Assembly: GCF_003334385.1 (NCBI RefSeq)
Contig: NZ_QOWN01000119.1
DNA: 1,258 nucleotides
Direction: 5' to 3' (one strand)
From: Escherichia coli
GTDB lineage: Bacteria; Pseudomonadota; Gammaproteobacteria; Enterobacterales; Enterobacteriaceae
A model generated the notes under the pieces. That model had not been told where the DNA came from and made no database searches. It was given only the letters and a program-made list of their open reading frames with translations. The position numbers and the translations under genes were made by a program. Below, in pieces: positions 1-384 of this stretch. Position 1 is the first letter of the stretch, and the number at the start of each line of letters is the position of its first letter.

Positions 1-26
1 TGTAGTGGCACACTAAATTTGGCCAC
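1..26 (+). repeat. Left terminal inverted repeat (IRL), TGTAGTGGCACACTAAATTTGGCCAC
   Basis: The reverse complement of 1233..1258 is TGTAGTGGTCAAGTAATATTGGCCAC. It matches 1..26 at 20 of 26 positions: the first 8 bp are identical, the internal block GGCCAC is identical, and mismatches fall at positions 9-11, 13 and 17-18. The 5' TG terminus is typical of the IS3 family. Confidence 0.85.
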
Positions 27-46
27 CTGATGAAAGGTGATATTCT
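19..46 (+). promoter_or_regulatory. Putative weak sigma70 promoter in the left end (pIRL-like): -35 TTGGCC (19..24), 16-bp spacer, TG at 38..39, -10 TATTCT (41..46)
   Basis: Hexamers read directly from the sequence. Spacing and the extended -10 TG are consistent with a sigma70 promoter placed upstream of the orfA ATG at 73. IS3-family elements such as IS911 are known to carry a weak indigenous promoter in IRL. No experimental support is available here. Confidence 0.4.
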
Positions 47-72
47 CACCACAACACAAAACAGGTGACTTA

Positions 73-384
73 ATGAACAAGAAAACCAAACGAACCTTCA
101 CCCCTGAGTTCAGGCTGGAATGTGCACAGCTGATTGTTGATAAGGGCTACTCATATCGACAGGCCAGTGAAGCGATGAATGTCGGTTCAACCACGCTTGA
201 GAGCTGGGTACGCCAGCTCAGGCGAGAGCGCCAGGGTATTACGCCCTCTGCCACACCCATTACTCCAGACCAGCAACGTATCCGCGAGCTGGAAAAGCAA
301 GTTCGCCGTCTGGAGGAACAAAATACGATATTAAAAAAGGCTACCGCGCTCTTAATGTCCGACTCGCTGAACGGTTCACGATAG
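73..384 (+). CDS. IS3-family transposase OrfA (103 aa): DNA-binding helix-turn-helix plus leucine-zipper regulatory/targeting protein
   Basis: ATG at 73..75 preceded by AGGTGA (63..68); stop TAG at 382..384. The N-terminal region ([40 protein letters not shown]) looks like an HTH. The C-terminal heptad leucines L73, L80, L87, L94 in [25 protein letters not shown] form a leucine zipper, as in IS911 OrfA. The ORF track calls a start at GTG 37, but that codon lies inside the putative promoter, so ATG 73 is preferred. Confidence 0.9.

Follow-up and report, generated by a model that had tools for sequence, protein, structure and literature searches.

The 1,258-nucleotide stretch of Escherichia coli contig NZ_QOWN01000119.1 analysed here (the window) is one complete insertion sequence (IS) of the IS3 family, which belongs to the IS911 clade and is common in E. 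coli. Its first gene, orfA, very probably begins at the ATG at position 73 and encodes an OrfA of 103 amino acids (aa). A mechanically called open reading frame (ORF) begins instead at the GTG at position 37 (37..384) and yields 115 aa, a difference of 12 residues. The reading favoured here combines an element of the IS911 clade, the ATG 73 start, a resident promoter of the extended -10 type and a fold in the leader, and as a whole it is held with good confidence. A preliminary description of the window had already argued for ATG 73 and a 103-aa protein, and the Shine-Dalgarno (SD) sequence, the boundary of the Pfam domain, the size of the IS911 protein, the related elements and RefSeq all agree with it. 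The positions it gave for a -35 hexamer (19..24), a -10 hexamer (41..46), GTG 37, AGGTGA (63..68) and ATG 73 were all correct on reading the sequence.

The sequence contains the GTG at 37-39, AGGTGA at 63-68 and the ATG at 73-75. AGGTGA can form 6 bp with the 3' end of 16S rRNA, with a duplex energy of -8.2 kcal/mol. No properly placed SD match was found in the 20 nt upstream of GTG 37; this segment ends in AAAG immediately before the GTG and has a duplex energy of -2.5 kcal/mol. The Pfam domain HTH_Tnp_1 (PF01527) was matched with an E value of 2.1e-12 over model positions 2-74 of 75, and model position 2 corresponds to residue 16 of the 115-aa form, i.e. residue 4 of the protein started at the ATG. 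The NCBIfam IS3 profile begins at residue 24 of the 115-aa form. In the experimental literature on IS911, OrfA has 100 aa and OrfAB 382 aa (PMC2909936). This OrfA length matches the homologous ATG, with the window protein including three extra codons, which are located after residue 2. OrfA, a helix-turn-helix protein, would be translated from ATG 73 using AGGTGA as the SD sequence.

A total of 80 related loci from Enterobacterales, Vibrionales, Alteromonadales and Oceanospirillales were fetched and, together with the E. coli loci, gave 88 loci with 61 distinct leaders. Alignment with homologous OrfA proteins, which the preliminary description had suggested as a check, placed the ATG at OrfA residue 1 in all 88 loci, and AGGTG lies a few bases 5' of this ATG in at least 90% of them. 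The GTG is always found at position 37 from the tip of the element, and the ATG follows 34-38 nt downstream of it. Of the 61 distinct leaders, 34 have an open, in-frame GTG. In the other 27 the frame is shifted, a stop codon intervenes or the triplet is not GTG, and these include the leader of an element found at 14 loci in a single assembly of Erwinia dacicola.

Entropy by codon position was compared among the leaders with the GTG in frame. For orfA codons 1-20, values at the first/second/third positions in three clades were 0.03/0.03/0.53, 0.17/0.07/0.58 and 0.40/0.33/0.88, showing the usual excess at the third position, and for extension codons 6-12 they were 0.09/0/0.23, 0.18/0.23/0.30 and 0.60/1.09/0.61. 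The 12 extension codons carry no coding signature. In our reading, the conservation of GTG 37 reflects the use of its T and G as the 'TG' of an extended -10 element and its place in a hairpin stem, and not a role as start codon.

In RefSeq, exact copies of the window element at two loci (373-1550) are annotated with WP_085968792.1, which begins at position 73. Hence, of the earlier statement that the choice of ATG changes the annotated N-terminus by 12 residues, the size of the difference stands, but the RefSeq annotation was already at ATG 73. In a large protein collection, the 103-aa protein is found on at least 1000 contigs versus 21 for the 115-aa protein, the latter being recorded, for example, as 'putative IS602 transposase OrfA' or 'Aec66'. 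The correction of the start is right, yet it has already been made in RefSeq for the exact sequence, and the result is an ordinary one, in line with the precedent of IS911 and that annotation. Elements that are ~94% identical nonetheless bear inconsistent N-termini in public records, the GTG start being used also in a number of GenBank entries, and the short form is favoured here. Consistent annotation would be of practical value, as it touches protein clustering and the design of expression constructs, but not the understanding of transposition.

Positions 38-46 probably represent the -10 region of a putative resident promoter at the left end. G37, T38, G39, T41, A42 and T46 are the same in all 58 distinct left ends compared, and positions 3-5 of the hexamer vary freely (TATTCT, TATGCT, TATCAT, TATAAT, TATTAT, TAATAT, TAAGAT and TATGAT). 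With the exception of G37, the invariant bases are the sigma-70 contacts in an extended -10 element, namely TG at -15/-14, T-12, A-11 and T-7. T38 and G39 also lie in the stem of a hairpin (see below), and changes in their partners leave them fixed, with seven U-G pairs at 38:48 and three G-U pairs at 39:47; pairing alone therefore does not explain these two bases. The TG at 38-39 thus identifies an extended -10 element, which had been missed in the preliminary description. Of the -35 and -10 pair proposed there, the -10 is backed by conservation, but the hexamer match is at chance level and the -35 is without independent support because it lies inside the conserved AATTTGGCCAC transposase-binding block of the terminal repeat. 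In several relatives TTGGCC becomes CTGGCC, and an extended -10 promoter depends less on a -35. The column of the predicted transcription start, 53, is a purine in 46 of the 58 relatives.

The pIRL promoter of IS911 is partially located in the left inverted repeat (IRL). It is drawn ahead of orfA in IS911 diagrams, as described in the figure legends of later papers. In IS2, another member of the IS3 family, a weak extended -10 promoter (P-IRL) occupies the same place, just inside the left end, and is accompanied by a stronger junction promoter that needs a 17-bp spacer (PMC3299598, PMC3219604). The sequence of the IS2 promoter is unrelated to that of the window promoter. The study of IS3-family ends by Fuqua and Wagner (2025) covered IS150, IS2 and IS3, and the clade of the window is outside its scope. 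As judged by its sequence, the resident promoter would be a weak sigma-70 promoter of the extended -10 type and the counterpart of IS911 pIRL.

Transcripts from ~53 would carry a short, C/A-rich, unstructured leader that lacks GTG 37. The argument of the preliminary description that a transcript starting near 53 cannot encode a protein from 37 holds for transcripts of the left-end promoter. It does not extend to those from a junction promoter or reading in from outside, which contain GTG 37. A C/A-rich tract, CCACAACACAAAACA, occupies 49-62 just 5' of the SD sequence, and a similar tract is present in IS911. Tracts of this kind have been suggested to be translational enhancers dependent on ribosomal protein S1, as discussed for IS200 (PMC4513863).

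The ends of the window also match the geometry of an IS911-type junction promoter, the -35 of which is in the right inverted repeat (IRR) and the -10 in IRL (PMC9330008). With the two ends abutted and 3 bp between them, the computed spacer from TTGACC to CACACT is 17 bp. Transcripts of this putative promoter are predicted to start near 21 and thus to span GTG 37, as would read-through transcripts from neighbouring genes. On such long transcripts, the case against GTG 37 consists of the missing SD sequence, the position of the codon in a stem and the comparative data. Long transcripts from outside or from the junction promoter would probably fold, with 24-29 pairing with the SD region at 62-67 around the hairpin at 36-50, and this fold would be expected to lower the translation of orfA.

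It is proposed, tentatively, that leaders of the IS911 clade share a two-helix RNA fold, in which the inner part of IRL pairs with the SD sequence as an outer helix that encloses a hairpin with the -10 hexamer as its loop. Some 50 nt would then serve as transposase-binding site, promoter and translational gate, with the translatability of orfA set by where the transcript starts. All 35 distinct hairpins in the relatives have at least 5 pairs, formed from differing stem sequences (among them GGTGC/GCACC, TGAGTG/CACTCA, GAAGTGA/TCACTTC and GAGGTTG/TGGCCTC), and two-sided changes are seen in three of the four outer hairpin pairs. Other clades have their own versions of the outer helix, such as CACCTA/TAGGTG and CACTTAAT/ATTAAGTG.

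In a MAFFT alignment of the leaders, 78% of cells pair versus 29-42% with the partners slid, and 42 cells are double-changed versus 17 +/- 3 in shuffles, with none of 500 shuffles reaching the observed number. A covariance-model alignment gave 80% paired cells and 49 double-changed cells versus 19.5 in shuffles, and over both alignments slid partners paired in 28-44% of cells; in all of these counts the structure was derived from the same, phylogenetically related sequences in which covariation was counted. When leaders were taken from position 21, RNAalifold recovered the outer helix unaided, as 25-29 with 62-66. In that set pair 29:62 is G-C in 30 leaders and A-U in 16 (G-C in 30-37 and A-U in 16-17 over the alignments). 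Mismatches in the interior of the hairpin are G-U in 8 cases versus A-C in 1, an asymmetry suggestive of the sense strand acting as RNA or possibly as single-stranded DNA. For the outer helix the corresponding numbers, 13 versus 17, are uninformative, being dominated by one fixed C-A mismatch.

The folding energy of positions 1-100 taken alone was no better than that of shuffles (z = -0.62). The minimum fold of the single sequence, which pairs 24-28 with 35-39 and 46-50 with 64-68, was rejected as an alternative: 90% of its cells pair, with no double-sided change. No compensatory change was seen in a further complementarity, GTGGC/GCCAC at 5-9 and 22-26 inside IRL, the pairing of which would compete with that of the anti-SD arm.

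That the leader fold is functional appears, from these sequence comparisons, to be close to an even matter, inclining slightly towards no. By analogy, the likeliest role would be the classical one of silencing the translation of transcripts that enter from outside. Leader folds of the same type, which sequester the SD sequence, are known in IS10 and IS50. For IS200, silencing of the translation of incoming transcripts was shown experimentally: a segment near the end of the element is complementary to the ribosome-binding site, and long or structured transcripts are poorly translated (PMC4513863). The window differs from all three in that its putative fold is deduced from covariation alone, has a small predicted effect and holds the -10 in the loop of the inner hairpin. 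No description of such a leader fold for IS911 was found in the searchable papers. The fold, if functional, could explain how elements of the IS911 clade ignore the transcription of neighbouring genes.

Several observations weigh against the favoured interpretation. In the window taken alone, the promoter match is at chance level, with 4/6 and 4/6 bases matching (8/12). A consensus promoter scan of the window with a threshold of 9/12 found no promoter, and at 8/12 it found 2 sites on both strands versus 3.55 +/- 1.9 in 500 dinucleotide shuffles. An 8/12 match within the first 45 nt of the + strand occurred in 6% of shuffles, and TGNTANNNT is present twice in the window versus 2.1 expected. GTG 37 is in frame and open throughout the enterobacterial clade, IS911 included, and in RefSeq an ISEc31-family copy (WP_226169000.1, 1037-2253 of its locus) begins at the equivalent of GTG 37. 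With regard to the fold, when RNAalifold was given full leaders beginning at the tip, its choice was 5-9 with 22-26, a pairing without covariation. In the window element the fold is weak: the hairpin has 5 bp, and the SD accessibility predicted stays within 0.54-0.63 for each of the 5' ends considered (0.58 from 1, 0.54 from 21 and 0.63 from 53; means over 16 relatives for 5' ends at the tip, 21 and 53 were 0.34, 0.44 and 0.53). Finally, junction transcripts from ~21 would carry the anti-SD arm too, which sits badly with the presumed role of the junction promoter in boosting transposase.

Among the alternatives, the one that survives best, though unlikely, is that TGnTAnnnT in the palindrome is no promoter and only folds into a hairpin (as RNA or as single-stranded DNA) or is bound as an operator by a dimer that the element encodes, with orfA transcribed from farther upstream and still started at ATG 73. 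The chance-level hexamer match is in keeping with this, as is the covarying stem, in which the excess of G-U over A-C mismatches fits a transcribed sense strand. The OrfA of IS2, moreover, binds beside its promoter and represses it (PMC3299598). The same paper reports that this is not so for IS911, the OrfA of which is without repressor function, and in the legends cited above pIRL stands ahead of orfA. A hairpin or operator also leaves aside that the invariant positions are exactly those read by sigma-70, fixed even when the pairing partner changes, and that the variability of the loop at positions 3-5 is that of -10 hexamers. A resident extended -10 promoter is preferred.

Dual initiation is less probable still. 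Here, short transcripts would give the 103-aa OrfA, and long transcripts would in addition give a minor 115-aa isoform of OrfA and OrfAB in the enterobacterial clade. The predicted junction transcripts would include GTG 37, and an in-frame spacing of 36 nt is kept across the IS911, ISEc52 and ISEc31 clades, but this constancy is equally explained by constraints on the geometry of promoter, leader and SD sequence. The GTG has no SD sequence, is inside a stem, is followed by codons lacking a coding signature and is out of frame in relatives with many copies, such as that of Erwinia dacicola. The weakest alternative, that translation begins solely at GTG 37 and OrfA is a 115-aa protein with a tail before the helix-turn-helix, draws on the longest ORF, on the open, in-frame GTG of the window, ISEc31, ISEc52 and IS911, and on the GTG starts of RefSeq ISEc31-family transposases and the 21 contigs with the 115-aa call, but it is dismissed as very improbable given a GTG with poor rRNA pairing placed within a hairpin stem and a conserved -10 region and unusable in 27 leaders when ATG and SD are universal, an extension with no third-position bias that is outside the Pfam and NCBIfam models, and the 100-aa OrfA reported for IS911.

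Table 1. Features of the 1,258-bp window, in order of position.
Feature	Position	Strand	Remarks
IRL (left terminal inverted repeat)	1..26	+	Tip TGTAGTGG, followed by the conserved AATTTGGCCAC block
TGgCACACT, putative extended -10 of the junction promoter	6..14	+	T6, G7 and G8 invariant; A12 and T14 at least 90% conserved
TTGGCC, -35 of the preliminary description	19..24	+	4/6 match; 16-bp spacer to TATTCT at 41-46
CACCTG, candidate anti-SD 5' arm of the long-range helix	24..29	+	Pairs with CAGGTG at 62-67, overlapping the SD sequence
Hairpin GGTGA-TATTC-TCACC	36..50	+	36-40 with 46-50; loop is the -10 hexamer; 5' arm contains GTG 37
GTG, start of the mechanical ORF, rejected as orfA start	37..39	+	No SD sequence; unusable in 27/61 leaders; no coding signature
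TGATATTCT, probable extended -10 (TGn + TATTCT)	38..46	+	T38, G39, T41, A42 and T46 invariant in 58 relatives
Predicted transcription start	53	+	From geometry only, 7 nt after the -10
AGGTGA, Shine-Dalgarno sequence of orfA	63..68	+	A63, G64, G65 and T66 at least 90% conserved
Rfam RF01387 (isrC) match	69..191	+	150 bits, E 2.5e-38; 5' part of orfA, not a small RNA gene here
orfA	73..384	+	103 aa and stop codon; HTH_Tnp_1 protein; start of the RefSeq coding sequence
A AAA AAG, slippery site for programmed -1 frameshifting	333..339	+	From sequence and the RefSeq note 'programmed frameshift'
orfAB transposase	join(73..339, 339..1250)	+	392 aa; NCBIfam NF033516
IRR (right terminal inverted repeat)	1233..1258	+	Pairs with IRL; from the right ends of 32 distinct relatives
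TTGACC, putative outward -35 of the circle-junction promoter	1245..1250	+	Invariant in 32/32 distinct right ends, 6 nt from the tip

The closest named relative of the window element is ISEc31: their first 400 nt are ~93-94% identical, their OrfA proteins are 98% identical, and they have the same leader. The identity of the window is nevertheless under the usual 95% line for isoforms. IS911 and ISEc52 have ~65% nucleotide identity to the window element overall, and the OrfA proteins of IS911 and the window are 60% identical. The left 75 bp are collinear with IS911, ISEc52 and ISEc31, with a mean column identity of 83%. The correspondence with IS911 is gapless and runs base for base through the tip, TTTGGCCACCTGA, AGGTGATATnCTCACC, CAGGTG and the ATG at 73. 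The two elements further share the A6G frameshift site, TTGACC in IRR 6 nt from the tip, OrfA proteins of similar length (100 versus 103 aa) and, as far as the putative promoters of the window are concerned, the combination of a weak resident promoter in IRL with a junction promoter. They differ in the hairpin, which has 5 bp in the window versus 7 contiguous pairs in IS911, where the stem reaches 9 positions if one A-A mismatch is allowed. Identical copies of the window element are present in many complete E. coli genomes, and 1649 of 5426 genomes have a match covering at least 80% of the query.

IRL and IRR are imperfect repeats, 77% complementary, with 5'-TG...CA-3' ends. The AATTTGGCCAC block common to both is kept in the 58 relatives. 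Around one identical copy, 3 bp of the target (GCC) are duplicated, and several relatives likewise have 3-bp duplications. The two coding frames overlap, with orfB in the -1 frame relative to orfA and a slippery site of the A6G type, and the OrfAB transposase would be produced by -1 frameshifting at A AAA AAG. The 392-aa OrfAB scored 360.5 bits against NF033516 (IS3 family transposase; cut-off 160 bits), covering profile positions 1-368 of 369.

The match to the Rfam isrC family arises from the Salmonella isrC locus, between msgA and envF (2862-2979 on the - strand of the fetched stretch), which holds a fossil orfA fragment of the window element. The first base of this fragment corresponds exactly to window position 69; its ATG is replaced by ATA, 5 nt are deleted, and the DNA in front of it is unrelated. 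The 5' end of Salmonella IsrC has been mapped by primer extension (PMC2330248), but as a route to a mapped 5' end of the element this RNA was rejected: the fragment is without the left end and is therefore uninformative on the promoter. The isrC of E. coli K-12 is an unrelated RNA (RF00124), and a Salmonella arizonae copy of the element and a 62-aa partial protein of Salmonella are both at other loci. The Rfam family will flag an 'sRNA' in every copy of the window element.

Among the related loci, a few copies depart from the common pattern. One IS911 copy (locus L006, ~1330-1345) has a damaged slippery run, its 0 frame reading EILKRLPRS*, which fits one A fewer, and it is still annotated as 'programmed frameshift' in RefSeq. 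The slippery run of the Salmonella arizonae copy (1760-1775) is likewise damaged and reads ILKKLPRS. At a Cedecea neteri locus (1383-1440), a second, weaker match to the leader model (47.6 bits) lies directly 5' of the main left end and could be a tandem or partial copy of that end. Related elements were also found on two contigs assigned to distant organisms. A 1765-bp contig assigned to the archaeon Halorubrum sp. Atlit-26R holds an element nearly identical to the Erwinia/Serratia type, and a short contig of a metagenome-assembled genome of the Firmicute Sporosarcina psychrophila holds an element with an OrfA 97% identical to that of IS911; for both, contamination of the assembly seems more likely than transfer.

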